Of a DNA stretch of 64,000 nt, positions 769-62,199 are shown piece after piece (the first letter of the stretch is position 1; each line of letters starts with the position of its first letter). The notes beneath the pieces were generated by a model. It was given only the letters and a program-made list of their open reading frames with translations. It did not search any database and was not told the DNA's origin. Source of the stretch: a virus. Where the stretch lies: positions 32,001 through 96,000 of the IMG/VR virus record IMGVR_UViG_3300034107_000725; one strand, written 5' to 3'. A program made the translations under genes and the position numbers.

Positions 769-2685
769 ATGTCATCGCTTGTTTCTAGCGGTAGTCCTTA
801 CTTCAGCCGCGGTGCTGGTGCATCCTACGGTGAAACAGGATTTGCCGATCCTTGGAATGATCTAGCAACTACCCAGATGCCGACGACCATGAAGTCGGCA
901 CTGTGGTGGTCTGAGTATATCTGGACGGTGCATGGTACCTACCGGATGGCTATGGAGCGGATTGTAAGCTACTTCCTAACCGACGTAGAGATTGGCGGCG
1001 AAGCCAGCGACGAAGAGAAGAAGAAGTACGAAGGCTTTCTTAACGATCAGCTACAGATCATGCCGTTTCTGGGCATGGCGATGAGAGACAGATTATGTTA
1101 CGGAAATGCCTTCGTCAGCGTGGTCGTGCCTTTTCGTCGTTTTCTACAGTGTCCCAAGACGGGTGATATGTATCCGCTCAAGGTCGCGTACAACAACTTT
1201 GATTTCAAACTCAACGATGAGTTTGAATTCATAGCTACCTGTCCTAAGACTGGCTGGCGTGGAGCTTGGCAGGTTGTGGACAAGCCGCGAGAAGAAGCAG
1301 AGCACATCATTCTCAAACGCTGGAATCCACACGAAATCGAAATCCTGCACGATCCTTATACAGATGAGGCTGCTTATCTGTGGCGGATCCCTGAGTACTA
1401 CAAGCGGATGGTAAAAGAAGGTAATCTGTTTCACCTAGAACGCTGTAGCCGTCAAGTGATGGAAGCGATCCGGCACAACAAGCTGTTTAGGTTCAACCAA
1501 GATGCCATCTTCCACCTGAAGGAACCAACTCTGGCCGGTATTCGAAACATGGGTTGGGGCTTACCTCGCAGTCTGACAAACTATCGTCAAATCTGGTACG
1601 TACAAGTGCTGCGACGATACAACGAAGCAATTGCTCTGGATTACGTGATTCCTTTTAGGTTAATCACACCGGGTAACAGTGGTGGTGCAGGTGCGGGCGG
1701 CATCTCAACACAAGACCCGATGTCGATCTACGCTGCTGGAGACTTCAGGTCTCAGGTGCGGAACATGATCAACAAGCGTCGCCGAGATCCTGCCAGCTGG
1801 CAGATGTTACCGTTTCCAGTGAACTATCAGATGCTGGGTGGCGACGCCAAACAGCTGGCACCTACAGAAATGATTCAACAAGGCACGGAAACCCTGCTGA
1901 ATGAAACCGGTGTACCGGTGGAGTTCTATCAAGGGTCGCTGTCTTTGCAGGCTGCCCCAGTGGCTCTACGGCTGTTTGAAAGTACACACCGCAGTCTTGT
2001 CTCCGATGCCAACATGCTACTGCGTTGGATCTGCGAATCCATCGGACGGATCATGTCTTGGGAGAAAGTGGACTGCCATCTTCAACGTGTCACAATCGCT
2101 GATGACATGCAGAAGCAAATGTCGGCTCTCCAGCTGATGATGGGCCAACAACTCTCTGGGCATTCCGGACTCAAAGCAATCGGATACGACTGGGAGACAG
2201 AACAAAATCTTATTGCAGCCGAAGCTCGCAAGCAGCAAGAGCTTCAGGCCCGACAACAAGAAGAAATGGAACAAGCCGGTTTTGCCGCCGAAGTGGCCAA
2301 GGGAAACAACCCAAACGCAGCGATGGCACAACCCGGCGGTGGGGCTCCGCAGCCAGGTGGAGGTGCTCCTCAACAGGGTGGAGCTCCGCCGCAAAGTGGT
2401 CCAGATATGGCGGCAGCTGGTGGGTCTCCCGTTACCAACTATATTCAAACCATGGGTGCAAATGCTGCGGTTACGCCAAACGATCTGCAATCCGCAGCAG
2501 GGCAACTGGCTCAAGAACTGCTTGGATTGCCAGAAGGCGTGAAAGACTCGCAGTTAAGACAGTTGAAGCAGTTCAATCCGACGTTGCACTCGTTGACACG
2601 TACTAAAATGGATGAAATGCGACAACAGTTTCGCACTCAAGGCGGAGCCATGCTACAACAACAACAGATGGGCGGAGGCCAGTAA
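769..2685 (+). CDS. Phage portal-like protein with a Gln/Gly/Pro/Met-rich C-terminal tail
   Basis: GGAGG RBS; portal-like succession of motifs (LCYGNAFV, RWNPHEIEI, IFHLKEP, GWGLPR, EAIALDYVIPFRLI); low-complexity tail. Confidence 0.7.
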   Translation: MSSLVSSGSPYFSRGAGASYGETGFADPWNDLATTQMPTTMKSALWWSEYIWTVHGTYRMAMERIVSYFLTDVEIGGEASDEEKKKYEGFLNDQLQIMPFLGMAMRDRLCYGNAFVSVVVPFRRFLQCPKTGDMYPLKVAYNNFDFKLNDEFEFIATCPKTGWRGAWQVVDKPREEAEHIILKRWNPHEIEILHDPYTDEAAYLWRIPEYYKRMVKEGNLFHLERCSRQVMEAIRHNKLFRFNQDAIFHLKEPTLAGIRNMGWGLPRSLTNYRQIWYVQVLRRYNEAIALDYVIPFRLITPGNSGGAGAGGISTQDPMSIYAAGDFRSQVRNMINKRRRDPASWQMLPFPVNYQMLGGDAKQLAPTEMIQQGTETLLNETGVPVEFYQGSLSLQAAPVALRLFESTHRSLVSDANMLLRWICESIGRIMSWEKVDCHLQRVTIADDMQKQMSALQLMMGQQLSGHSGLKAIGYDWETEQNLIAAEARKQQELQARQQEEMEQAGFAAEVAKGNNPNAAMAQPGGGAPQPGGGAPQQGGAPPQSGPDMAAAGGSPVTNYIQTMGANAAVTPNDLQSAAGQLAQELLGLPEGVKDSQLRQLKQFNPTLHSLTRTKMDEMRQQFRTQGGAMLQQQQMGGGQ

Positions 2686-38421: not shown

Positions 38422-38643
38422 ATGACAAAGCCAAAGAAGGAAAATCCACCGTTGACGGATCGCGAGTGGCAAGTTGTACGACTGATTCAACAGAATAAGA
38501 AGTACAGAGAGATTGCAACAGAATTGGGATTGGGCTACGAGACTGTGAAGACTTATGCCACGCGTATTCGTCGCAAGCTCAATCTGACGTCTAAAGTGGC
38601 GGTTGCGTTGTGGGCACAAGAGAAAGGAAAGTCTGATGGATAA
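38422..38643 (+). CDS. LuxR-type HTH DNA-binding protein (stand-alone)
   Basis: LTDREWQVVRL...IATELGLGYETVKTYATRIRRKL. Confidence 0.85.
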   Translation: MTKPKKENPPLTDREWQVVRLIQQNKKYREIATELGLGYETVKTYATRIRRKLNLTSKVAVALWAQEKGKSDG

Positions 38644-49106: not shown

Positions 49107-50000
49107 GTGACTATGGACGTTCGAACAGCAAAGGCGTTGCTTAAACAGATTCAACAGGTGAAGCAAGCAGAGACCGGAAATGTCACGGTGGCGGGTTTAC
49201 CTGCACCAGCATCACCAACTCCAACTTCGTTTTCTTTTCTGGCTCGTAATATGCCAAATTTGTTACCTGGCAGCCTGCCTAAAGATTTGGCTAAGCAACA
49301 AAATACTAAGCTACAGTCAGATACTCAAAAGGCCATCATTAGAACTATGATGTTGGCAGCTGGCGGAGGTGCTGCTGTGCGTGGACTTACAGGCTTAACT
49401 AATATGCTAGGCGAATCACCACAAATTGCCTCAACAGGTCGTACTGTAGAAATGCCTGTCGCATATGCCGAGGAGCCGAAACGTAAAAAAAGGATGAAAC
49501 AAGCAGAGGCATTCAAATCGAGTGTCGACACTTATAACCAGGGAGCTACAAACAAAATTGGGTTGAACTACTACATACCGGGCATGCTGATCGGCGGCGG
49601 GTTAGCGGCTTACGGCGGCTGGAAGGGTGTAGACCATCTGCTAGATGCTCAACGGCGTAAGCATACAAATGAGGACATGGAAGCAGCAAAACAGGAATAT
49701 GAAGACGCTCTGCTCGGGGCATATAAAAAAGCAACGGATACGGCACTAGATCAAACCTTTGAGCGTTATGAAAAACAAGCATATCTTGAGAATATACCGG
49801 GAGCTTTACAAGGTGCCGGACTGGCTTACACGGCAGCGTCACTTCCAATCGGTTACATGATCGTTAATGACATGATGAAAAAGAACAGCAAACAAGCCTT
49901 GTTACAAAAAGCTCTGCAAGAGCGAGCTCGTCGTCAAGCCATGACACAGCCACCAGAAATTTATGCGATTCCACACTCACCCAACGAGGAGAGCGAATAA
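49107..50000 (+). CDS. Putative virion protein with K-x-A motifs and hydrophobic Gly-rich helices
   Basis: KQA three times plus KKA; three hydrophobic segments. Confidence 0.6.
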   Translation: MTMDVRTAKALLKQIQQVKQAETGNVTVAGLPAPASPTPTSFSFLARNMPNLLPGSLPKDLAKQQNTKLQSDTQKAIIRTMMLAAGGGAAVRGLTGLTNMLGESPQIASTGRTVEMPVAYAEEPKRKKRMKQAEAFKSSVDTYNQGATNKIGLNYYIPGMLIGGGLAAYGGWKGVDHLLDAQRRKHTNEDMEAAKQEYEDALLGAYKKATDTALDQTFERYEKQAYLENIPGALQGAGLAYTAASLPIGYMIVNDMMKKNSKQALLQKALQERARRQAMTQPPEIYAIPHSPNEESE

Positions 50001-50003
50001 GCG

Positions 50004-53000
50004 ATGCAACCGCTCACGCCCAATCTGCTTGAGCCGGAATCCTCATCGCTGTTGACTCCGGCTGCATCTATCCAGCCGTTACCGCCTGCTCCCGATTATC
50101 GGGAGTTTGGTGATACGGTAAAAACGCGTTCACGTATTTATGACAACGTACTGAACGCGGCTAAGAACATACAGCCCGTGTCGAACGACCGCCACACACT
50201 TCGGTTGGCGGATGTGGATTACATGGATTCAGATCGGGTCAGCAAGCGGGATCAGAAGGCCGCTATTCTGAACGGCTTGACCCGCGGGCGAAGGCTACGT
50301 GGTACGTGGGAACTGGTGGACAACGCCAGTCAGCAGGTGCTTGATAGTAAGCGGTCTGTGCTTATGACCGTACCTCACCTCACCGAACGCGGTACGTTCA
50401 TTAACAATGGCACAGAGTACACATTAAAGAACCAACAACGCTTGCTCCCTGGCGTCTACACGCGGGAACGTGATAACGGTGAAATTGAATCACACGCAAA
50501 CGTCTTGCCGGGCAAGGGCGTGTCTCACCGTTATTTTCTAGACCCAGAAAAAGGGCAGTTCAAGATTCGCCTGGGACAAGGCACCGTCAGCCTGATGCCT
50601 TTGCTCAAGTCTATGGGTGCGACTTCAGAACAGATTAAAAATGCTTGGGGCAAAGATCTTTATGCCAGTAACTTCAACAGCGATGACGCTGGCGAACACA
50701 AGAAGCTCCGGGCCAAGTTTCTAAATGCTAAAGAGCTTCAAGGGGATGAGCAGGCACAGCGGGCAGCTCTTGTGCAAAAGTTTGCCAACATGGAGCTGGA
50801 CCCAGAAGTCACAAAGCGAACGCTGGGTAATCCACATGCAGGACTGACCCTGGACGCTGTGATGGATATTACCAAAAAGCTAATTCAGGTCAGTCGTCGG
50901 GAAGCCGAGCCGGATGATCGTGACGCGTTAACCTATCAGAGCTTCCTTGGCCCTGAAGATCTACTTGCAGAAAGAATTTCGCGAGATAAAGGTGGTTTAC
51001 GCCGTCAGCTTTTATGGCAAATGTCGGGGCAAGGCAACCTCCAAAAAATGCCATCTTCTGCCTTGCACAAGCAGCTTCAGGCTGCCATTATGGGTTCCGG
51101 GCTGGGTCAAGCGATCGAAGAAATTAATCCGGCAGAGCTGTACGACAAGTCAACAGCTGTGAGCCGCCTAGGCGAGGGCGGTATTCCTTCCACGGATGCT
51201 ATTCCTAAAGAATCGCGTAGCGTTCAGCCCAGTATGTTCGGATACGTGGACCCTGTGCGAACCCCAGAATCGGGCAAGGTAGGAGTGGACACCTACCTTG
51301 CTCGTGGGGCTCGCAAGGGTTCCGACGGCAAACTTTACGCTCAGTTTAACGACGTTAGAACCGGTGAAACCATTTACAAAACACCGCAAGCTGTTGCGGA
51401 TTTGACTTTGGGTTTTCCTGGAAGCATGCAGCAACTCGGGAAACGGGTAGCCGCTATGCGTAACGGAAAAATGGTCTACGTGCCAAAGCACGAGATAGAC
51501 TTAGAGTTACCAAGCATGGAAGAAGCGTTTAATCCGCTTTCCAACATGATACCTATGAAAAGCCAGGTCAAAGGTCAGCGACTGGTGATGGCGTCTCGAA
51601 TGACCACACAGGCGTTACCTATCGCAGGGGCCGAAGCTCCACTGGTTCAGTCGGCGATACCAGGCACAAACGGACAAAAGAGCTACGAAGAGCTTTATGC
51701 CGGTGCGATGGGTGCGTTACGTGCTCCGCAGGGCGGAACGGTGACCGGTGTAGACGATGACGGCATTCATGTGCGATACGAGGACGGTACTTCAGACACA
51801 CATGAGATGTATCAGAACTTCCCGTTTAACCGTAAAACTTTCATACATCAGACGCCAGTCGTAAGGCCTGGAGACCAGTTTGGTCCAGACCAGTTGCTGG
51901 CCCAGTCCAACTATACTGATAAGACAGGGGCAACGGCTTTAGGGCGTAACGCTCGTACTGCTTATGTCTCGTGGCAAGGCAAGAACTTTGAAGATGCCGT
52001 CGTAATTTCTGAAGGCTTTGCCCGGAAAATGGCTTCTGAGCACATGTATCAGAACAGTCTGGAAGTAGACGACAAGACTCAGCTGGGTAAGCATAATTAC
52101 ATTCAGAAGTTTCCTGGTAAGTTCGATAAGGCAACTTTGGCAAAAATGGATGATAGCGGCGTGATTAAGCCTGGAACGGTGGTACACTACGGCGATCCTC
52201 TCATTCTGGGAACTTCGCAGCGGGAAACCTCGTACAACAAAGTCCACAAAAAAGGACAGGCAGGACACACCGATGCAGCAATCATTTGGGATCATCACGA
52301 CGACGGGACCGTTACCGATGTGGTCATGGGCAAAACGGGACCGACTGTCGTTGTTAAAGCGACGTCAGCCATGCAAGTTGGCGACAAACTCTCTGGGCGG
52401 TACGGAGACAAAGGAGTCATTGCTGATGTCATCCCAGACCATCAAATGCCACATGATAGTGACAAACAACCCTTCGAAGTCCTGTTGAATCCACTTGGTG
52501 TCATCACCCGAACCAACCCGGCTCAGATGTCTGAGTTGTACCTGGGTAAACTAGCAGCCAAGCTGGGACGACCTATCAAGGTCCAAGACTTTGATTCAAG
52601 CAAAGACATGGGCGAATGGGTTTCACAAGAACTGGCCCGTGAAGGTTTGTCTGACTTGGAAGACATCAACGACCCGTCTAAAGATCAGAAGATCGGCGGT
52701 ATTGCTACGGGTCATCGGTTTTTTATGAAGCTGCACCACACGGCTGAGTCTAAGGGACAAAGCCGCGGTGGTGGAGCTTACACAGCGGATGATGCACCGG
52801 CTAAAGGTGGGTCAGAAGGCTCAAAGCGAATTGGGATGTTGGATACAAACGCCTTGTTGTCTCACGGAGCTACGGCAACGCTACAAGACGTGAGTGCAGT
52901 TCGTGGACAGAAGAATGACCAATACTGGATGCAGTTCATGTCCGGCTACAATCCAACAGCGTCCAAGGTACCGTTTGTGTATCAAAAGTTTGTCAATCAA

Positions 53001-54443
53001 CTCAAGTCTGCTGGTGTTAACGTCGTCAAGCAAGGCACACAGACAAACATCATGGCGTTGACGGATAAGGATGTGGATGAGCTGGCCGGTGATCGCGAAC
53101 TCCAAAACGCGGAAGGCGTAGACTGGAATAAGGGGCTCAAGGAAATTTCTGGCGGCTTGTTTGACAAGTCGAAGACCGGAGGTCACGGGGGCAATCGTTG
53201 GAGCTATATCAAGCTGCACGAGCCGTTGCCAAACCCGGTGATGGAAGAACCCATCCGGCGTATGCTAGGTTTGACACAGAAACAGTTTCAAGGCGTAATC
53301 TCAGGCACGGAACCGTTATCTAAGTACGGCACAGGTCCGCAGGCTTTACAAAAGGCCCTGTCCGGAATGAATGTTGATGCTGAGATTGAGAAAGCCCGTA
53401 ACGCTATTTCAGCGGGTCGGGCCTCAGACAGGGATGCGGCGGTGAGGAAGCTAGGATACCTGAAGAGTGCTAAAAAGCTGGGTCTCCATCCTGGCGATTA
53501 CATGCTTACAAAAGTGCCTGTTCTGCCTCCTATGTTTCGACCCGTCAGCATGATGTCAAACGATATGCCACTGATTAACGATGCTAACTACCTTTACAAA
53601 GAGTTATTTGAGGCAAATAACAACCTCAAAAGCATTCAGAGCGAATTAGGACATGAAGCATCCGGGCTGGAACGAATGGCGGCGTACAATGCCTTCAAAG
53701 CTGTCACGGGTTTAGGCGATCCAATTAGCCAGAAAAGTCGAGATAAGAACGTCAAAGGTGTGCTTCAGTCTGTGTTTGGTTCCAGCCCCAAGTTCAGTAC
53801 ACTACAACGCAAACTGATTTCCACCACTGTGGATAACGTCGGGCGGGCGGTGATCACCCCCAATCCGGATCTGGACATGGATTCGGTCGGCCTGCCCGAA
53901 GAGAAAGCCTTCAAGGCGTATGAGAAGTTCGTCACCCGGCGGCTGGTCCGTCAGGGTATGTCGATGAGAGTGGCTCGCGAACACATTGCAAACAAATCGA
54001 AGCTGGCACGCAATATTCTGCTTGAGGAGATGGATCATCGTCCGGTATACATCAGCCGGTCTCCTGTTCTTCACAAGTTTGGGATTTTGGCAATGAAGCC
54101 AAGACTAACCAAGGGTGATACACTTCAGGTTAGCCCTCTCATCGTTAAAGGCTTTAACGCTGACTTTGATGGCGATGCTATGAATTATCACGTACCGAGC
54201 ACAGAAAAGGCCCGACAAGAAGCTCTTGACCGACTTCTACCTAGCCGAAACTTGTTCAGTCTGTCAGACTTTAAATCCGTGATGCACGCTCCGGCAAACG
54301 AGTTTGTCGGCGGTTTGTACCACGCTACGAAATCCGTTAGCGATCGCCCTAAAAAGATCTTTCGATCGCTACAGGATGCTAAGCGGGCCTACGCACGGGG
54401 CGATATTTCTATCGACGATCGCGTGCAAATCCTAGAATCTTAA
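50004..54443 (+). CDS. Multi-subunit RNA polymerase: beta subunit fused to the N-terminal half of beta'
   Basis: Beta motifs GTFINNGTE, RTPESGKVG, NFEDA, GDKLSGRYGDKG, LLNPLG, MKLHH; beta' motifs VPVLPPMFRP, GRAVITP, SRSPVLHK and catalytic NADFDGD (54156-54176). Confidence 0.95.
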   Translation: MQPLTPNLLEPESSSLLTPAASIQPLPPAPDYREFGDTVKTRSRIYDNVLNAAKNIQPVSNDRHTLRLADVDYMDSDRVSKRDQKAAILNGLTRGRRLRGTWELVDNASQQVLDSKRSVLMTVPHLTERGTFINNGTEYTLKNQQRLLPGVYTRERDNGEIESHANVLPGKGVSHRYFLDPEKGQFKIRLGQGTVSLMPLLKSMGATSEQIKNAWGKDLYASNFNSDDAGEHKKLRAKFLNAKELQGDEQAQRAALVQKFANMELDPEVTKRTLGNPHAGLTLDAVMDITKKLIQVSRREAEPDDRDALTYQSFLGPEDLLAERISRDKGGLRRQLLWQMSGQGNLQKMPSSALHKQLQAAIMGSGLGQAIEEINPAELYDKSTAVSRLGEGGIPSTDAIPKESRSVQPSMFGYVDPVRTPESGKVGVDTYLARGARKGSDGKLYAQFNDVRTGETIYKTPQAVADLTLGFPGSMQQLGKRVAAMRNGKMVYVPKHEIDLELPSMEEAFNPLSNMIPMKSQVKGQRLVMASRMTTQALPIAGAEAPLVQSAIPGTNGQKSYEELYAGAMGALRAPQGGTVTGVDDDGIHVRYEDGTSDTHEMYQNFPFNRKTFIHQTPVVRPGDQFGPDQLLAQSNYTDKTGATALGRNARTAYVSWQGKNFEDAVVISEGFARKMASEHMYQNSLEVDDKTQLGKHNYIQKFPGKFDKATLAKMDDSGVIKPGTVVHYGDPLILGTSQRETSYNKVHKKGQAGHTDAAIIWDHHDDGTVTDVVMGKTGPTVVVKATSAMQVGDKLSGRYGDKGVIADVIPDHQMPHDSDKQPFEVLLNPLGVITRTNPAQMSELYLGKLAAKLGRPIKVQDFDSSKDMGEWVSQELAREGLSDLEDINDPSKDQKIGGIATGHRFFMKLHHTAESKGQSRGGGAYTADDAPAKGGSEGSKRIGMLDTNALLSHGATATLQDVSAVRGQKNDQYWMQFMSGYNPTASKVPFVYQKFVNQLKSAGVNVVKQGTQTNIMALTDKDVDELAGDRELQNAEGVDWNKGLKEISGGLFDKSKTGGHGGNRWSYIKLHEPLPNPVMEEPIRRMLGLTQKQFQGVISGTEPLSKYGTGPQALQKALSGMNVDAEIEKARNAISAGRASDRDAAVRKLGYLKSAKKLGLHPGDYMLTKVPVLPPMFRPVSMMSNDMPLINDANYLYKELFEANNNLKSIQSELGHEASGLERMAAYNAFKAVTGLGDPISQKSRDKNVKGVLQSVFGSSPKFSTLQRKLISTTVDNVGRAVITPNPDLDMDSVGLPEEKAFKAYEKFVTRRLVRQGMSMRVAREHIANKSKLARNILLEEMDHRPVYISRSPVLHKFGILAMKPRLTKGDTLQVSPLIVKGFNADFDGDAMNYHVPSTEKARQEALDRLLPSRNLFSLSDFKSVMHAPANEFVGGLYHATKSVSDRPKKIFRSLQDAKRAYARGDISIDDRVQILES

Positions 54444-54473
54444 CCAGATCAGATTGACAAGGAGATCATAACG

Positions 54474-55187
54474 ATGGGACTGAACCTCGAGCTTCTTAAA
54501 CAAGCCCGATATAACGTACGGGAGCTGGAAAAATCAGCATTTGTAGCTGCCGGTGACCCGTCAATGGGTGGAGATCCTGCGGCTATGGCTGGTGGCGGTG
54601 CTCCTCCTATGGACCCAGCTATGGCTGGCGGTGCCCCTCCAATGGATCCGGCGATGGCTGGCGGTGCCCCTCCAATGGATCCGGCGATGGCGGGTGGTGC
54701 TCCTCCTATGGATCCGGCGATGGCTGGCGGCGGCGATCCAATGGCTGCAATCATGCCGATGATTCAGCAAGCGGTACAGCAAGCAATGGCAGCCAACGGT
54801 GGCGGCGGTAGTGGTCCACAAGCAGGCGGGCCCGGAATCAAACCCAAGATCGACGTCAACGTCGAAATCATGCAGATGAAGAAGATGTTGGCCAAGATGA
54901 TGGACGCCATGGGAATCCACATGCCCGTAGCCGACATGGTGGCCACACCAGAAGATCTCAATCAGATTGCACAAGGTGGAGCCGGTTTCGCCGCAGCTAC
55001 GCCTGATAACGGTGGCGGACTGGGAGCCATCAAGCCGATACAGGCTATGAAGGCCGCAGAAGACTGGGAAAGCGGTGTAGCCTTTACACCTCCTTCCGAG
55101 AATTCATTCCAGCAGTCACACAACGTCACAAGAAGTACGGCAAACATGGCAACAGCGTTATTGCTGCGTAACCGTATGACGGGTTGA
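54474..55187 (+). CDS. Low-complexity Met/Gly/Pro/Ala protein with tandem repeats
   Basis: AAGGAG RBS; KQA, KSA, KAA; MDPAMAGGAPP repeats. Confidence 0.7.
   Translation: MGLNLELLKQARYNVRELEKSAFVAAGDPSMGGDPAAMAGGGAPPMDPAMAGGAPPMDPAMAGGAPPMDPAMAGGAPPMDPAMAGGGDPMAAIMPMIQQAVQQAMAANGGGGSGPQAGGPGIKPKIDVNVEIMQMKKMLAKMMDAMGIHMPVADMVATPEDLNQIAQGGAGFAAATPDNGGGLGAIKPIQAMKAAEDWESGVAFTPPSENSFQQSHNVTRSTANMATALLLRNRMTG
54609..54740 (+). repeat. Coding tandem repeat, 4 x 33 bp (MDPAMAGGAPP)
   Basis: Units start at 54609, 54642, 54675 and 54708, differing mostly at third codon positions. Confidence 0.9.
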
Positions 55188-55203
55188 GCAGAAGGACAGT
55201 TCG

Positions 55204-55428
55204 ATGTTCTTTGTCGAGATATTGGAAAGTATCGGGAAGCCTCCCTTGCGGGTGGAGGCTTCTCAGGTGGTTATTCGAATGGCTGACGGTACTCCCGTCA
55301 GTGTAGCTGCGGTCTTTGGCACTGCAAGCAGTGTTTTGGTTTCACACTGTGAAGACCCAAACTTTAACGCAAACTTGCGTAAGCTGGGCATCAATGAAAC
55401 CGTTATCTCTACTAGACTGAAGGTATGA
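55204..55428 (+). CDS. Small hypothetical protein
   Basis: AAGGA RBS; tightly packed. Confidence 0.65.
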   Translation: MFFVEILESIGKPPLRVEASQVVIRMADGTPVSVAAVFGTASSVLVSHCEDPNFNANLRKLGINETVISTRLKV

Positions 55429-55429
55429 C

Positions 55430-56140
55430 ATGTCCGACCCGACACGATCTGCTGATAAGGCTTATTACGCTTCCCGAACTCCGTTAGATATACGGGGCAC
55501 TCGCGAAGGGCGATCAAATCCGCCAAAATTCCCAAGCTATCAGCACAAAGGTTACGACTCCACCGCGTCGTCTGACAAATACTATGCGGTGCAACCGGCT
55601 AAAGTGGATGCTCCTGTAGCTCAGGCCGTGCGGCAGAAACCTGCACGGAACACAGTAGCACAGAAAACCGAGCTGATTATCACAGATACGGATAATCTGT
55701 TACGGCGGTTAAGCGATATACTAAGAGATAACGATGTTGAGGTCGTTGTTAAAGGCGATGCAGAATTGATCCGACAGGCACGAATGATTTTGGATTTATC
55801 TGTAGGCCGAAACGAGTTTACACGACAGCAGGCAGACTCTGTGTCATTCGCGGTGGTTGAAGCAAAGATCACAGTACCCGACGTAGCGGTTGTGGACGTA
55901 GCACCAGAACCAGTAGTAGAGGTAGCCGCAGAGCCAGAGCCAGTAGCAGAACCGGAACCAGAAGTAATTCCGGAGCCCGTGATACGGGATGAAATTGCTG
56001 AACTTCTGGCAGCACCAACACCGGTTGTCAAAAAAAGTAAGCCTAAGCAGGTCAGACAGGCCAAGAAGCCCGAGGCTAAAACTATCACGGAAGATGACAT
56101 CGCTGCCGCTCTTGGCCTAGGCGATGATAGCGACGACTAA
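55430..56140 (+). CDS. Hypothetical protein with a Pro/Glu-rich C-terminal linker
   Basis: Colinear ORF; EPEP repeats. Confidence 0.65.
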   Translation: MSDPTRSADKAYYASRTPLDIRGTREGRSNPPKFPSYQHKGYDSTASSDKYYAVQPAKVDAPVAQAVRQKPARNTVAQKTELIITDTDNLLRRLSDILRDNDVEVVVKGDAELIRQARMILDLSVGRNEFTRQQADSVSFAVVEAKITVPDVAVVDVAPEPVVEVAAEPEPVAEPEPEVIPEPVIRDEIAELLAAPTPVVKKSKPKQVRQAKKPEAKTITEDDIAAALGLGDDSDD

Positions 56141-56152
56141 GAGGCTGTTTGC

Positions 56153-59100
56153 ATGCTGAATACGACTGTCGGCCAACTGTTGGTAAACGAATCACTGCCT
56201 GAAGACTTGCGGGACTATAACCGAGTCCTGGACAAGAAAGGTATGGGTGCGTTGTTACAGCAGGTGGCTCGACAGTATCCAGAAAAGTACCGTGAAGTGT
56301 CGTTTCAGCTGAGTCAGGTTGGGCAGAGGTCAGCTCAAGACCAGGGGGGTATGTCGTTCGGCATGCGTCACCTGAAACGAAGTAAGATCGCCAACGAAAC
56401 TCGGAAACGGATTCAGGGGCAGCTAGACAACATCTTGTCTGATGACTCGCTCACAGATCAGCAACGCAACGATCTGATTGTGAAAACAGTTGGACGTGAG
56501 AGCGAACCGCAGCAGAAGGCAGTGCTGGAAGAAGCCATTCAAGCCAAGAATCCGTTAGCAATGCAAGTGCTTTCAGGTAGCCGCGGTAAGCCTATGAATC
56601 TTGCCAGCTTGCTGGCAGCAGATATGCTGTACTCGGACCACAGGGATGAGGTTATTCCAATTCCGGTGCTTCGCAGTTACAGCGAAGGCTTGTCCCCGGA
56701 AGAATACTGGGCTGGAACTTATGGTGCTCGTCGCGGGATCATCGCAACTAAGTTTGCCACTCAGGAAGCGGGATTTCTGAGCAAACAGTTAAATCAAGCA
56801 GGTCACCGGCTGGTCGTAATGGGTGAAGAGGGTGACGAAGATCCGGAAGCACCTACTCGGGGTTTGGTCGTTGATACTGACGACATGGACAACGAGGGTT
56901 CGCTTTTGGCTCGGGACGTAGGACCGTACAAGCGAAACACCCCACTTACCCCCAAGATTCTCAAACAACTACAGCGACTTGGCAAAAACCGGATTTTAGT
57001 CAGGTCGCCGATGGTTGGTGGTTCTCCTGAGGGTGGTGTTTATGCTCGAGACGTTGGTATCCGTGAACACGGTACCTTGGCAGGGTTAGGCGAGCAGGTC
57101 GGACTTCAGGCAGCTCAGGCTTTGTCTGAACCGATTAGCCAAGGGCAGCTTTCGGCAAAGCACTCTGGCGGCGTTGCCGGGCAGGAAAAGGCGGTTGGTG
57201 GATTCCAATACATCAATCAGCTGATTCAAACGCCCAAGAAGATGCAGGGTGGAGCTGCTCACTCTACATTGGACGGTACGGTGCAGCGAGTAGAACCTGC
57301 TGCTGCCGGTGGGTTCAACGTAACGATTGACGGCAAGCCGCACTATGTAGGTGAGGGCTTTGGTGTCAAAGTTAAAAAAGGGGATAACGTCGAAGCCGGG
57401 GATGTGCTTAGCGACGGTATTCCCAATCCAGCGGTCATCACTCAGTACAAAGGTGTTGGTGAGGGTCGCCGTTACTTTGTCAACGAATTCCGCAAAGCTA
57501 TGTCAGCTAGCGGTATGCAGGGACACCGCCGCAACATTGAGTTGCTGGCACGCGGATTAATCAATCACGTTAAGCTCACGGAAGAGACTGACGATCATGC
57601 TCCGGACGATATCGTCCCGTATTCTACGTTGGAGCATACATACAAGCCACGGGAAGGCCATGAGCGTCTAACGCCCAAAAAAGCGTTGGGCCAGTATCTG
57701 GAACGTCCGGTGTTGCACTACACCATTGGCACTAAGATTCGCCCGTCGATGCTTAGAGACTTCGATGATTTCGGAGTCCAGGCAATCCCGGTGCATAAGA
57801 ATCCGCCACCGTTCGAGCCACATATGGTACGAGGTATGTACCAAATGCAGCACGATCCGGATTGGATGACCCAGATGTACGGTTCCGGACTCAAAAAGAG
57901 TCTGCTGGAATCCACAGCACGTGGAGCAACCAGCGAGGAACGGGGTACCAGCTTCATCCCCAGCTTGGCGTCAGGCACTGATTTTGGCGAAGTCCCAGAT
58001 CGTGCAGTGATTCAGCCTAAGCCTGCATATTCATTGCCTAAAGTATCCATTCCTGACTTGGAGCCTGAAAATTCAGGATCCACGTTCTTTGGAGGCCGAT
58101 ACAAAGTAGGCATGCAAAAAAGGGCGGTAGAAGCGACCCCACCCAAAGTCGAGGCTCCGGCCTCCACATCTATGTCGGCTCCTACCGCCCCTACTCCCTC
58201 CCCGTCGAATGCCGCAGAGTTGGGTAGCAATAATATTATGTCCCCGGCTACAACTGTCCAGCCCAAACTGGATACAGTGACTCAGCCGATTCAACCGCCA
58301 GCGGATATACCACAGGCAAGCCAGACTCCTAGAGCAAGCCAGACTCCTCCAGCCAGTCAACCGCCGCCAGCCAGTACACCAGCACAGGTTCGGGCAGATG
58401 TGATGCAGGCTTCAAGAACCGCAACTCCGCCTCCGATTCAAGAACCTTTGCCGCAGATTAAAAGACCGTCAACTAAGATGCCAGAGCTATCTACTGGAAC
58501 CGCATCCACTTCTCGGCTAACCAGTTCTCGGCTAGGCTCACAAACAGCAGGCATTCCATGGTGGCGGGCAACAGCAAAGCCGACAGACACGACATGGAAT
58601 AAAACAGAAAATACCGAATTCCATTCTCAGCCTAACTCTGTGTTAGGTGCGACACCGTCTGTGGCCAACCTGGCTGCGAGTCGTTCCTACGCACCAGAGC
58701 CTCCAGCTGCACCTGTAAAGGGTTATGCAGATTATGCTCAAGACGCCTGGGACGCGTTTAAAAACCCTGTAACAACGATTAGTAATCAACTCTACGGTAC
58801 GCCGGAACCTACTGCGGGTAACTCGTTTTCCGATGATGGAAATCTGTTGGCTCGCTCTGGGGTAAATATGGGTCTTAAACAAATGATGGGCCGCTCTGCC
58901 CCGGCTGCGATTACTGCAGCAGCTGAAGCTGCAGTTCCATTGTCTCGGGTGGGTCGATTGGCAGCCGGAGCTCGAGCTTTGTTGCCGGGGTTTTTACCTG
59001 GGGCCAGACTGGCAGCCGGAGGTGCCGCAAGTGCTGCGGGTGGTCTATCTTTGGCACCGGCAGCGATAGGCTTTGCTGCGGTTAACGCAGGCACTGAGCT

Positions 59101-59335
59101 GCTTGACGCAGGCGGTCTTTTGCCAGAATGGGCGGGTGGAGATGGTTGGGGTACTATGGGCTGGGATCAAACTGGCTTCGAAAACGACTTTAAAGATCGG
59201 AGTATACCGGGGGCTGCCTTACATACCGTTATGAACCCACTTAAAAGCATATGGGCTGGCGGTACACGACTAGGTGATGCAGGTTATAGGGGAACGAGCT
59301 GGCTGTACGACAAGTTTAGAGGCGGGGCAAAATAG
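56153..59335 (+). CDS. RNA polymerase beta' C-terminal half with a ~400-aa non-RNAP extension
   Basis: TTVGQ, SGSRG, bridge helix TYGARRGIIATKFATQEAGFLSKQL, trigger loop AAQALSEPISQGQLSAKHSGG, GDVLSDG; then a P/S/T-rich linker and Gly/Ala hydrophobic tail. Confidence 0.9.
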   Translation: MLNTTVGQLLVNESLPEDLRDYNRVLDKKGMGALLQQVARQYPEKYREVSFQLSQVGQRSAQDQGGMSFGMRHLKRSKIANETRKRIQGQLDNILSDDSLTDQQRNDLIVKTVGRESEPQQKAVLEEAIQAKNPLAMQVLSGSRGKPMNLASLLAADMLYSDHRDEVIPIPVLRSYSEGLSPEEYWAGTYGARRGIIATKFATQEAGFLSKQLNQAGHRLVVMGEEGDEDPEAPTRGLVVDTDDMDNEGSLLARDVGPYKRNTPLTPKILKQLQRLGKNRILVRSPMVGGSPEGGVYARDVGIREHGTLAGLGEQVGLQAAQALSEPISQGQLSAKHSGGVAGQEKAVGGFQYINQLIQTPKKMQGGAAHSTLDGTVQRVEPAAAGGFNVTIDGKPHYVGEGFGVKVKKGDNVEAGDVLSDGIPNPAVITQYKGVGEGRRYFVNEFRKAMSASGMQGHRRNIELLARGLINHVKLTEETDDHAPDDIVPYSTLEHTYKPREGHERLTPKKALGQYLERPVLHYTIGTKIRPSMLRDFDDFGVQAIPVHKNPPPFEPHMVRGMYQMQHDPDWMTQMYGSGLKKSLLESTARGATSEERGTSFIPSLASGTDFGEVPDRAVIQPKPAYSLPKVSIPDLEPENSGSTFFGGRYKVGMQKRAVEATPPKVEAPASTSMSAPTAPTPSPSNAAELGSNNIMSPATTVQPKLDTVTQPIQPPADIPQASQTPRASQTPPASQPPPASTPAQVRADVMQASRTATPPPIQEPLPQIKRPSTKMPELSTGTASTSRLTSSRLGSQTAGIPWWRATAKPTDTTWNKTENTEFHSQPNSVLGATPSVANLAASRSYAPEPPAAPVKGYADYAQDAWDAFKNPVTTISNQLYGTPEPTAGNSFSDDGNLLARSGVNMGLKQMMGRSAPAAITAAAEAAVPLSRVGRLAAGARALLPGFLPGARLAAGGAASAAGGLSLAPAAIGFAAVNAGTELLDAGGLLPEWAGGDGWGTMGWDQTGFENDFKDRSIPGAALHTVMNPLKSIWAGGTRLGDAGYRGTSWLYDKFRGGAK

Positions 59336-59641: not shown

Positions 59642-59691
59642 GCCAACATCACTTCTCTGGAACTGACGAGCTGTTGCTCACGGAAGGGACC

Positions 59692-62199
59692 ATGCAAACA
59701 CAACTGAATAAGACAGCCGCCCTCGGCGGCAGCGGCGGCGAAACCGAATTTGAACAGGCTTTTTCTAGCCTGGCCTATGCCTATCTACGGGATAAAGCCC
59801 CACGGTTGCTAGATTTCATGGTCGGTTTTCAACTAGTCGACCGCAATGAAGATAACACCAAAGCGATGGGTATCTTCGGATTTCAAGTTGGCAAGCAGTG
59901 GCTATATGCCCCAGTGTTCTTCTTAAACGGCGATCTCAAAGGTCACGAGTTGCTCTACATGAAGAACAACGACTCCTTTGTGCCGCTGAAGGAAAACTGG
60001 ATTAACTACATTATGAGCCGCAAGCCCCACATCTTGGGCGAGCAATCTGCCTCAAAGTTGCGAGAGCTTGGTGGCGTTTATCCGGATATCCGGACGCTTT
60101 CAATCCCACCTTCAATTGGTGGTGGCAAGCGTGCCAGTGATAACAGCTGGCTTCAAGGCGTGATGCCGATGCTGGCTGCTTTCAAAACCAAAGCGGCTAG
60201 CTCACTCTATCGTGGAGCAGGGAACCGCAAGCTCAATCAAGCTGCTGTAGTTGCCGATCCGTTCGGTGCCGCTTTGGCAAAGCAGGCTTCAATTCTGGAT
60301 TTTAACAACGTCATGCCACAGAGTCTGGAACTGATCAAGATGGCTCACGCTATCTCTGAACGGTACCCGACAATCAAACTGGCGATGCAGAAGTTCTACG
60401 GTGTAGACTGCTTCTCACGCTGGAGCAAAGACCTGCGTAACAACCTGGAGAAGGAAGCCAGCAACATTCTGCCCGTGCAGATTGCGGCCAAACCTTATAT
60501 GCCGGGCAATTTGTTGATCCCAACAGAACGACCAGCCGGACCAATCGATCACGTCAAGCAGGGCAAACTCAATCTGGATGCTCCAGAATACGTGTTTGAA
60601 CGTGGTGGATTTATTGTCGATACGCTTGATGTCAGATTCCAGGTTGAACGGGAATCTGCCGGTATTACAGACAGTCGTGCCGACGACGAAGTATCGAAGG
60701 CTTACAACACTCAAGTTGACGTGCGGATGACCAATCCAACCGAAACCAACTTGTACCGTGTGCTGGAACGTCCAGGCAAGTTCAGCAAGATGCTGGTTGT
60801 GATGCACGGCAGCAGCAACCGTGGACGAGAACCATTTGCCACGTTGGTACGACTGGAAGACAACGGCGACGGTGGTGATAAGGCCTGGCTCAACAGCCAT
60901 GCCACCAACATCTTTGCCGATCAGACCGCGGAACGCGATGAGTGGCGGGAATGGTTTGAAAGCCTGCCAGGCTCGGAATCGTTGCAAGACGGCGGTGAAT
61001 ACATCGCAGTTTCCGAGGATGGCTCGGGTACTGTGCCGTTCCATGTGCAGTCTAACTACGGCGACGGACGTCACCGTGTGGACTTCCGCACTCACGTCAA
61101 CTTCGACGAAGCTCGGCCCAGCACGATGCCTCGTTTGCAGAAGATCACCGATCCGTTTACGGAGGAAGGTTATCACATGCCGAGCACGTACGGTGCCATG
61201 CTGTACACCGATAAAGAGGGCAAGAAAGGTACACGGCTGCGAGCAATTGCCGGTGAGCTTCGCGTGCCTGACTCTTTCAAGTTCCTTAAGCTATCGGAAC
61301 CGCAAAAGCCCAGATCTGGCGAATTGATGCCTTGCTCCAATTACAACAGCCGCAGCGACATGCCGCCGATTCAGCTTGGTAAGATCGACGACATCCAGCT
61401 CTTCTTCTACGAAAAGACGGCTGGGTTGCAGTTGTTAAACAACAGCACAGACGTCTACATTGACTCGGTGCTGGGTTCAGAGCGGGTCAGTCTTAAAGAA
61501 GCCGCGTGGCATCTGGTAAGCGTGCATGGTCTTCGCGAGAAGGCAGCTCGTGAGCTGCTGGAACAGTCAGAACGTAAGGGCAAAACCAGTTACCGGATCG
61601 AGTATGCTCCGGGTTACGGCAATCAAAAGCAGGCTGGACCAAACGACAGCGTGCTGGCTGGCGGCCCAGATGCCCCAATCTTTGACGACTTTGCTGAAGA
61701 GCGAAGTGTTGAAAACTACGGGCCTCGTACTTCTGCTCCAACTCAGTACGGCGGTGAAGCTGCTTACCGTTTGAACCACTTGAGTGCAGATCAAACTGAC
61801 CCAGGTGTATGGAACCCATGGCAGAACTACGAAGCAGAAGACTTCCAGAAGAATGTACAGAAAGCTCAACAGGCTGGAGCACAGGGACAGAAGGAAGTCT
61901 TTGATACTTCGATGATCTCCGGTATGCTCAAGTCCGTTCGGCAGGATTCGCTGGTTGAACGTCACCTGGCTCCGCTGGTTGAATCTTTAGACGCCTTAGG
62001 CCGCCTGTTGATGAACTTCTACTGGCACGGCGAAGAGTTTGAAGATCGCTATGGTAAAAGCGATATGCCTGAGCTGGAAGATAGCCTTCGAAATTCCTTC
62101 GAGGCCTTGGGTGATGTTACGCTCTTCCTGAAAGAGAAAACTGTCGAATCGCCGTTTGATAGCGGTGATGTCAATCTCGAAGAAACTTCAAGGAACTAA
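59692..62199 (+). CDS. Large putative virion protein with periodic K-x-A motifs
   Basis: KTA near the N-terminus, then KAA, KQA, KEA, KTA, KQA; conserved-looking N-domain (GFQLVD...PVFFLNG). Confidence 0.7.
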   Translation: MQTQLNKTAALGGSGGETEFEQAFSSLAYAYLRDKAPRLLDFMVGFQLVDRNEDNTKAMGIFGFQVGKQWLYAPVFFLNGDLKGHELLYMKNNDSFVPLKENWINYIMSRKPHILGEQSASKLRELGGVYPDIRTLSIPPSIGGGKRASDNSWLQGVMPMLAAFKTKAASSLYRGAGNRKLNQAAVVADPFGAALAKQASILDFNNVMPQSLELIKMAHAISERYPTIKLAMQKFYGVDCFSRWSKDLRNNLEKEASNILPVQIAAKPYMPGNLLIPTERPAGPIDHVKQGKLNLDAPEYVFERGGFIVDTLDVRFQVERESAGITDSRADDEVSKAYNTQVDVRMTNPTETNLYRVLERPGKFSKMLVVMHGSSNRGREPFATLVRLEDNGDGGDKAWLNSHATNIFADQTAERDEWREWFESLPGSESLQDGGEYIAVSEDGSGTVPFHVQSNYGDGRHRVDFRTHVNFDEARPSTMPRLQKITDPFTEEGYHMPSTYGAMLYTDKEGKKGTRLRAIAGELRVPDSFKFLKLSEPQKPRSGELMPCSNYNSRSDMPPIQLGKIDDIQLFFYEKTAGLQLLNNSTDVYIDSVLGSERVSLKEAAWHLVSVHGLREKAARELLEQSERKGKTSYRIEYAPGYGNQKQAGPNDSVLAGGPDAPIFDDFAEERSVENYGPRTSAPTQYGGEAAYRLNHLSADQTDPGVWNPWQNYEAEDFQKNVQKAQQAGAQGQKEVFDTSMISGMLKSVRQDSLVERHLAPLVESLDALGRLLMNFYWHGEEFEDRYGKSDMPELEDSLRNSFEALGDVTLFLKEKTVESPFDSGDVNLEETSRN

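Follow-up and report, generated by a model that had tools for sequence, protein, structure and literature searches.

The β′ subunit of bacterial RNA polymerase (RNAP), as in E. coli, Salmonella or Thermus, is one chain, separate from β, with 15 Cys residues and two Cys4 zinc sites: the zinc-binding domain (ZBD) of the clamp, with ligands C70, C72, C85 and C88, and a second site (Zn2), with ligands C814, C888, C895 and C898. In E. coli, the ZBD and the flap together line the RNA exit channel, and the ZBD takes part in contacts with spacer DNA, sigma and antitermination RNA; the second site is needed for β′ folding and assembly. According to the phiKZ RNAP structure paper, which cites Lane and Darst, the N-terminal β′ zinc domain is common to all multisubunit RNAPs (msRNAPs) except that of phage AR9 (PMC7618050). 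Here we describe an msRNAP encoded in a 64,000-nucleotide stretch of viral DNA (the window), bases 32001 to 96000 of a 193,990-bp IMG/VR virus record with an estimated completeness of 94%. The source is an uncultivated tailed phage of ~194 kb. Its enzyme shares with bacterial β′ the fold, the NADFDGD motif and the order of Pfam domains, but it lacks the Cys ligands of both zinc sites and, indeed, contains no Cys at all.

Several phage RNAPs resemble this enzyme in part. The AR9 and phiKZ enzymes are likewise bacterial-type, two-barrel msRNAPs with a split β′, but their β and β′ come in four to five pieces and they have no sigma, whereas the phage studied here encodes a fusion of β to the N-terminal half of β′ (β′N) as well as a sigma70-family protein. 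The nonvirion RNAP (nvRNAP) of AR9 is without the N-terminal ZBD (PMC7618050), as is the window enzyme. In phiKZ, the virion β′N-like protein gp180 has only two Cys residues (152 and 430), so that no Cys4 ZBD is possible; ZBD loss may be common in packaged msRNAPs. The nonvirion phiKZ protein gp55, unlike the window enzyme, keeps its ZBD (C58/C60/C73/C76, in agreement with the published structure). Cys makes up 0.61% and 1.16% of the two phiKZ enzymes but none of the window RNAP, and tblastn against the jumbo-phage msRNAPs gave no detectable similarity at the thresholds used.

A second group, the N4-like (Schitoviridae) polymerases N4 gp50 and DEV gp71, shares with the window RNAP a suppression of Cys that also reaches neighboring genes, and in N4-like phages this polymerase is packaged and ejected (PMC11445570). 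These are single-subunit, T7-like enzymes of ~3,500 residues from podoviruses, whereas the window enzyme is a two-barrel, multisubunit one. The N4 virion RNAP (vRNAP) has an unrelated fold, never possessed Cys4 zinc sites that could have been lost and is a functional analogue only. Lastly, the mReC lineage (PMC7481178) likewise comprises metagenomic tailed phages of about this size whose β and β′ are homologous to the cellular subunits. The window very probably belongs to mReC or adjoins it. In the mReC paper, RNAP serves as a phylogenetic marker, and neither zinc nor cysteine nor the virion came up in a text search of it (PMC7481178).

Results

A split, bacterial-type RNAP without the ligands of either zinc site

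Two open reading frames (ORFs) on the plus strand encode the enzyme. The first (P0001; 50004..54443, 1,479 residues, 0 Cys) fuses β in frame to the N-terminal half of β′, and its Pfam matches follow in that order: Rpb2_3 and Rpb2_6 (6e-46), then Rpb1_1 and Rpb1_2 (5e-24). The second (P0002; 56153..59335, 1,060 residues, 0 Cys) encodes the C-terminal half of β′ (β′C) and matches Rpb1_5; this match lies in the core, residues 1 to 620 (56153..58012, plus strand), which also matches β′ chains of the PDB by phmmer at 1e-34. The Mg-binding motif of the β′ double-psi beta-barrel, NADFDGD, is intact at residues 1385 to 1391 of P0001 (54156..54176, plus strand) and aligns with the bacterial motif. AlphaFold2 (AF2) models, built on natural alignments, agree: that of P0001 residues 961 to 1479 aligns to E. 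coli β′ residues 17 to 553 with a Z of ~22, and that of the β′C core, with a mean confidence (predicted local distance difference test [pLDDT]) of 81.6, has Thermus and E. coli β′ as its top Foldseek matches (E 5e-27, TMq 0.63). With the Rpb1 series represented by Rpb1_1, Rpb1_2 and Rpb1_5 and the overall β′ fold recovered in the models, we conclude that the catalytic core and fold are intact.

The clamp ZBD is another matter. When P0001 was aligned by MAFFT to a bacterial reference, Salmonella β′ from a public record (locus L006), a gap of ~32 residues opened between GGLFD and NRWSYIKL that spans C70, C72, C85 and C88. P0001 thus has no Cys4 clamp ZBD of the bacterial type. The original prediction, made from this DNA alone, had all four of these Cys residues gone along with about 35 residues; it was right about the former and close on the latter. 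In place of the domain stands a Gly-rich loop, GGLFD-x3-TGGHxG-xx-W...IKL (53151..53216, plus strand; model pLDDT 84 to 90), which begins with GGLFDKSKTGG at residue 1050 of the 1,479-residue ORF 50004-54443 (nucleotide 53151). We scanned 121 sequences of the clade to which the window belongs (the window clade) and located the anchor motifs in 104. The 30-residue spacing from GGLFD to PNPV is constant in all 104, and the loop has a conserved core, T-G-G-H-x-G followed by W, with the His present in 101.

The second site has fared no better. Two stretches of ORF 56153-59335 correspond to it, VVMGEEGDED at residues 221 to 230 (nucleotides 56813-56842) and RSPMVGGSPEGGVYARD at residues 284 to 300 (nucleotides 57002-57052); these and the ZBD string, all three quoted in the original prediction, were found where it had placed them. 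P0002 residues G227, G289, Y297 and D300 fall in the columns of C814, C888, C895 and C898, respectively, and HMMER alignments to solved β′ chains agree on these columns with the MAFFT and hmmalign alignments. The position equivalent to C814 (E226-G227-D228; 56828..56836, plus strand) lies in a column that is variable or gapped in the clade, and the former knuckle (G289, Y297 and D300; 57017..57052, plus strand) was placed by alignment. Across 263 clade sequences, the C814 column is variable, the C888 column holds Gly in 203 and Ser in 34, and the C895 column holds Tyr in 234, Phe in 8 and Leu in 7. The C898 column is Asp in every sequence aligned there (253 of 253, from the 263 taken). As the original prediction had it, then, no Cys remains at the second site, and the four ligand columns of bacterial β′ read variable, Gly, Tyr and Asp. 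The AF2 model has a pLDDT of 87 to 94 over β′C residues 241 to 300. In these alignments, Gly, a Tyr that hardly varies and an invariant Asp take the place of the Zn2 Cys4 knuckle.

Consequences for zinc binding

Alignment to bacterial β′, which the original prediction had proposed in structure-guided form, hence finds both sites gone, and the enzyme very probably lacks canonical zinc sites. With no Cys4 at either position, it cannot bind zinc canonically; it would have to fold without zinc, and presumably carries none. Perhaps zinc is still held by other ligands (His, Asp or Glu) at one or both sites? Near the two sites, the only conserved candidates are the loop His (101 of 104 sequences) and the Asp of the C898 column, and both speak for such a site. 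However, the remaining Zn2 columns are Gly, Tyr or variable, and the loop His stands alone among glycines and is Pro in the related clade of Salmonella phage Arash. A lone His or a lone Asp cannot form a tetrahedral site. Alternative Cys or His ligands were one of the two refutations that the original prediction had named, and no conserved set of three or four was found. We regard retention of zinc through non-Cys ligands as extremely unlikely. With no metal included, AF2 modeled both altered regions confidently, in agreement with bacterial β′.

The original prediction also proposed that promoter-spacer contacts, termination and assembly may be altered. By analogy with E. coli biochemistry, such changes are plausible. 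In the β flap-tip region (window ~52500 to 52620, P0001 residues ~830 to 870), P0001 is 8 residues shorter than Salmonella β and has no sequence similarity to the Salmonella flap-tip helix; the proteobacterial β insertion that follows the flap tip is absent, as expected. A shorter and dissimilar flap tip would fit a remodeled RNA exit channel.

Cys is absent from the whole enzyme and depleted around it

Together, P0001 and P0002 contain no Cys in 2,539 residues (binomial P = 8e-15 at the genome-wide Cys content of 1.27%, which comes from a simple whole-genome gene call). In Salmonella, β has 7 Cys residues (as annotated) and β′ 15. The absence of Cys from the RNAP is not due to chance. Nor is it confined to the RNAP: the two ORFs between the β′ halves and the 297-residue ORF upstream are Cys free as well, and nine consecutive ORFs (genome positions 79868 to 94199) have 3 Cys residues in 4,542 (binomial P = 2e-21). 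Outside the window, at genome positions 139070 to 139804, lies the gene for a 244-residue phage sigma, identified by matches to PHROG 351 and Pfam Sigma70_r3. It has no Cys, and two small ORFs that follow it are likewise Cys free. We conclude that the loss is total, involving every Cys and not only the eight zinc ligands, and that it reaches neighboring genes and sigma; the original prediction had noted neither point, nor the split among relatives described below.

A 105-residue open frame at window positions 38452 to 38580 (genome positions 70452 to 70580) matches Pfam Sigma70_r4 at 25.6 bits, above the cutoff, and may be a second, minimal sigma-like protein besides the 244-residue sigma.

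The pattern extends across the window clade

Among clusters formed at 50% identity, phmmer found 4,050 representatives at E ≤ 1e-3. The best 150 of these 4,050 are all at least 49% identical, and among these 150 we found no intermediates between forms that keep Zn2 and forms that lack it. In the 120 closest β′C homologues (58 to 99% identity), those free of inteins have no Cys, except for a handful with one or two; the homologues with multiple Cys residues are longer forms that contain intein or homing-endonuclease domains. The fused subunit shows much the same: 88 of its 120 closest homologues are Cys free, and most of the others are long and intein bearing. Tara Oceans data and other metagenomes of aquatic origin are the sources of clade members, and none of the cultured phages in INPHARED belongs to the clade. 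To judge from these comparisons, the entire clade, very diverse as it is, has neither zinc site and no Cys in the enzyme, and the pattern is evidently clade wide.

One relative (L022, ~78% identity) shares its gene order and Cys-free block with the window. Its β′C ends at 658 residues, and a separate Cys-free ORF of 629 residues (L022:11982-13871) starts 4 nucleotides later. We considered whether the long tail of the window β′C might be a homologue of that ORF; BLAST gave no similarity, and homology is unproven. Lengths of β′C vary across the clade from ~620 to more than 2,000 residues.

Inteins and homing endonucleases (PF14528, PF05203, PF14890 and PF03161) occur in both RNAP genes of many clade members (P0034, P0036, P0037, P0170, P0181, P0229 and others). 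In β′C, insertions recur near residues ~194 to 210 and ~334.

A sister clade retains Zn2

The best INPHARED matches were Salmonella phage Arash and Vibrio phages D69, D148 and D181, at 25 to 29% identity over 96% of the length. Arash and D69 have much in common with the window: β is fused to β′N, with β′C a separate gene; the ZBD is deleted and a TGGxxG turn (TGGPxG in Arash and D69) is found in its place; and a phage sigma, a position within the structural module and near-total depletion of Cys are all shared. The genes between the β′ halves are not conserved between the two clades. In the fused subunit, Arash has 1 Cys residue and D69 has 2. In both phages, β′C has exactly four, C-x51/52-C-x6-C-x2-C, and these occupy the alignment columns of the bacterial Zn2 ligands. 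Of 120 proteins homologous to Arash gp216 (β′C), 113 have exactly the four Zn2 Cys residues and the other 7 have five. Hence, the Zn2 Cys4 set is kept in 120 of 120 Arash-clade proteins and absent from 263 of 263 window-clade proteins. The original prediction had asked if the loss is common to related phage RNAPs; deletion of the ZBD indeed occurs in both clades, but the loss of Zn2 does not extend to the Arash clade. In Vibrio phages D181 and D148, a homing endonuclease lies inside the fused gene.

This distribution bears on how the zinc sites came to be absent. Might the lineage have split from cellular RNAPs before either zinc site arose, such that nothing was ever lost? The mReC paper does argue for a deep, possibly prebacterial branch of such phage RNAPs (PMC7481178), and for the ZBD by itself, a deletion would look the same in the present data as primitive absence. 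However, bacteria and the Arash branch both have Zn2, with identical C...C-x6-C-x2-C spacing, and its absence from the window clade is hence derived. Primitive absence is, in our view, highly improbable. The comparison points instead to a lineage that as a whole has been purged of Cys, with Zn2 apparently the last site to go.

We also considered metal economy, in which a phage of a zinc-scarce habitat such as the open ocean drops zinc from its most abundant enzyme, and the loss of Cys follows from this and has nothing to do with packaging. The aquatic origin of the clade, Tara Oceans included, is in keeping with this idea, as is the finding that Zn2 was lost only in the window clade and not in the sewage or coastal clade of Arash and D69. 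Yet it would cover only the eight ligands and leave aside the remaining Cys residues of the enzyme, the Cys-free neighbors that are not RNAP genes, and sigma. The rest of the proteome has an ordinary Cys content (1.27%), and the Arash clade, which keeps Zn2, had already been purged of all other Cys residues. Metal economy is a distinctly unlikely primary cause.

The RNAP may be a virion protein

The sister clade also offers virion proteomics. In mass spectrometry of purified Arash virions, the β-β′N fusion gp206 was the most-detected protein, with 3516 spectra, above the capsid protein; gp216 (β′C) gave 1210 spectra, and the sigma gp10 gave 467 at 100% coverage (PMC10585845). Another virion protein, gp218, gave 1149 spectra (PMC10585845). 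The sigma of the window genome is homologous to gp10, and a baseplate-J homologue comes after it, as in Arash. The RNAP genes lie upstream of, and on the same strand as, homologues of gp218, gp222 and the major capsid protein.

A precedent for Cys loss in packaged polymerases exists. The N4-like phage DEV has a virion RNAP of ~3,400 residues that, along with other products of the ejection operon, is Cys free across 191 genomes; the DEV paper cites an earlier proposal that the lack of Cys reflects passage through the disulfide-forming periplasm (PMC11445570). The signature described there is a conserved absence of Cys from the polymerase and the neighboring ejection genes; here too, Cys is consistently absent from the polymerase and its neighbors. 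For the N4 vRNAP, transit is believed to occur in an unfolded or beads-on-a-string state, with refolding inside the cell (PMC13434306).

Perhaps the enzyme is instead an intracellular, nonvirion RNAP that lost its zinc sites through relaxed constraint or for regulatory reasons, for example to escape host factors acting at the ZBD and RNA exit channel, and whose Cys-free state is a quirk of the lineage? The AR9 nvRNAP, which is also without a ZBD (PMC7618050), illustrates that ZBD loss needs no packaging. Moreover, whole-record searches with Rpb2_6, Rpb1_2 and P0002 found no msRNAP set besides P0001 and P0002, and this single set presumably serves later transcription too. However, drift would not yield 0 Cys in 2,539 residues over hundreds of lineages together with an invariant Asp and Tyr replacement, the homologues are dominant virion proteins in Arash, and the genes are located in structural modules. 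We consider a purely intracellular enzyme unlikely, though of the alternatives weighed here it is the least improbable.

Neighboring genes and other features

The genes around the RNAP are mostly without family assignments. Directly upstream is the 297-residue Cys-free ORF (49107..50000, plus strand), which is conserved in L022 and has no family match. Between the β′ halves lie two Cys-free ORFs on the plus strand. The first, of 237 residues (54474..55187), contains four tandem PPMDPAMAGGA-type repeats, is 61% identical to its counterpart in L022 and has no Pfam or PHROG match; the second, of 236 residues (55430..56140), is of low complexity, and its N-terminal 140 residues are conserved in L022. 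Beyond its core, β′C continues as a Cys-free, low-complexity tail of ~440 residues rich in Ala, Pro, Gly, Ser and Thr (58013..59335, plus strand). The 841-residue gene that follows β′C (59674..62199, plus strand) contains 2 Cys residues if read from its first Met (835 residues), and its N terminus resembles the Arash virion protein gp218 and D69_0266 by tblastn.

For most of 27 neighboring or Cys-free ORFs, PHROGs and Pfam gave no match; the exceptions were ribonucleotide reductase, a helicase, sigma, Baseplate_J and a collagen-like fiber. An ESM Atlas lookup of a 445-residue Cys-free ORF (L009) returned only unnamed viral clusters, at <0.9. In a hydropathy scan of the Cys-free block, the hydrophobic segments, including one in the β′C tail, were all weak, and we make no claim of membrane insertion.

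The point at which β′ is split (54443/56153) is close to the cyanobacterial rpoC1/rpoC2 split. The β′N model aligns to residues 8 to 558 of the 617-residue Synechococcus gamma subunit, and the PDB sequences that match best are gamma chains.

Farther along the genome, at positions 105906-114998 and 131073-136076, respectively, are genes for a 3030-residue collagen-like tail-fiber protein with 3 Cys residues and a 1667-residue protein with none; both lie outside the window in the structural region, and the latter has no family match. The portal homologues of Arash (L001:6926-8665; Cys 123/126/152/155) and D69 (L002:6922-8703; Cys 125/128/154/157) contain a CxxC...CxxC pattern, which suggests a zinc knuckle.

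Discussion

We favor, with a probability of roughly 0.6, a reading in which the RNAP is packaged in the virion and ejected, and the zinc sites were lost in a general purge of Cys. Both large subunits, together with the Cys-free phage sigma, would be packed into the capsid as a holoenzyme, which would enter the host with the DNA and start early transcription. Thiols and zinc-thiolate clusters would be liabilities during storage outside the cell, passage through the tail, exposure to an oxidizing periplasm and refolding. Both zinc sites would then have been lost through the purge and not primarily as a change at promoters or terminators. The original prediction of a zinc-free msRNAP holds at the level of sequence, there being no Cys anywhere in the enzyme, but the evidence points to a primary cause that it did not name, suppression of Cys in packaged and ejected proteins. 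Packaging and ejection in this phage, and the selective reason for the purge, are steps that we infer from genes and from related phages.

Several findings weigh against this reading. The virion proteomics come from Arash only, whose proteins are just 25 to 29% identical. In the Arash study, 116 of the 272 proteins turned up in "virions," and carryover of abundant enzymes is a possibility that the authors themselves raise (PMC10585845). By our own counts from the GenBank record (NC_004629), the virion RNAP subunits of phiKZ contain 16 Cys residues in 2,614; Cys loss is thus not obligatory for packaged msRNAPs, and we rejected the idea that all of them are Cys free. The Arash-clade enzymes keep Zn2. 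In the window phage itself, the portal (window 769-2685) has 6 Cys residues and a helicase homologue of Arash gp217 has 7; the Arash counterparts of both were detected in virions, and not every particle protein has been purged of Cys. As for zinc, the AF2 models hold no ligand information, and its absence is predicted from sequence. Since the packaged phiKZ RNAP and the portal and helicase homologues do have Cys, a further, clade-specific factor may contribute; the host envelope, prolonged contact with oxic water and scarcity of metals are candidates.

The loss of the AR9 ZBD, the Cys-free ejected RNAPs of N4-like phages, the mReC lineage and Arash have already been published. In the open-access papers searched, we found no prior report of a zinc-free or Cys-free msRNAP, or of the combination seen here, in which a bacterial-type holoenzyme is Cys free and has lost both zinc sites, Gly, Tyr and Asp are conserved as replacements, and a sister clade has stayed at Zn2 only. 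The odds are, in our estimate, about even that this large, abundant uncultivated clade has a metal-cluster-free, thiol-free msRNAP holoenzyme that evolved to survive packaging, ejection by way of tail and envelope, and unassisted refolding, with Gly, Tyr and Asp substituting structurally for Zn2.

If this is true, the Arash clade, with Zn2 kept, and the window clade, with Zn2 replaced, would form a natural before-and-after pair for the loss of a Cys4 site and would thereby let the replacement of such a structural site be studied as a natural experiment. The enzyme would be a candidate bacterial-type RNAP insensitive to oxidation and to chelators for use in biochemistry. The tie between Cys purging and protein ejection would be extended, in testable form, from the single-subunit enzymes of N4-like phages to multisubunit ones. 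Total absence of Cys would then be a marker, readable from sequence alone, of ejected phage proteins in myovirus-like phages as well, and this suggests an inexpensive way to predict, within the large "dark" proteomes of marine phages, which proteins are packaged cargo.

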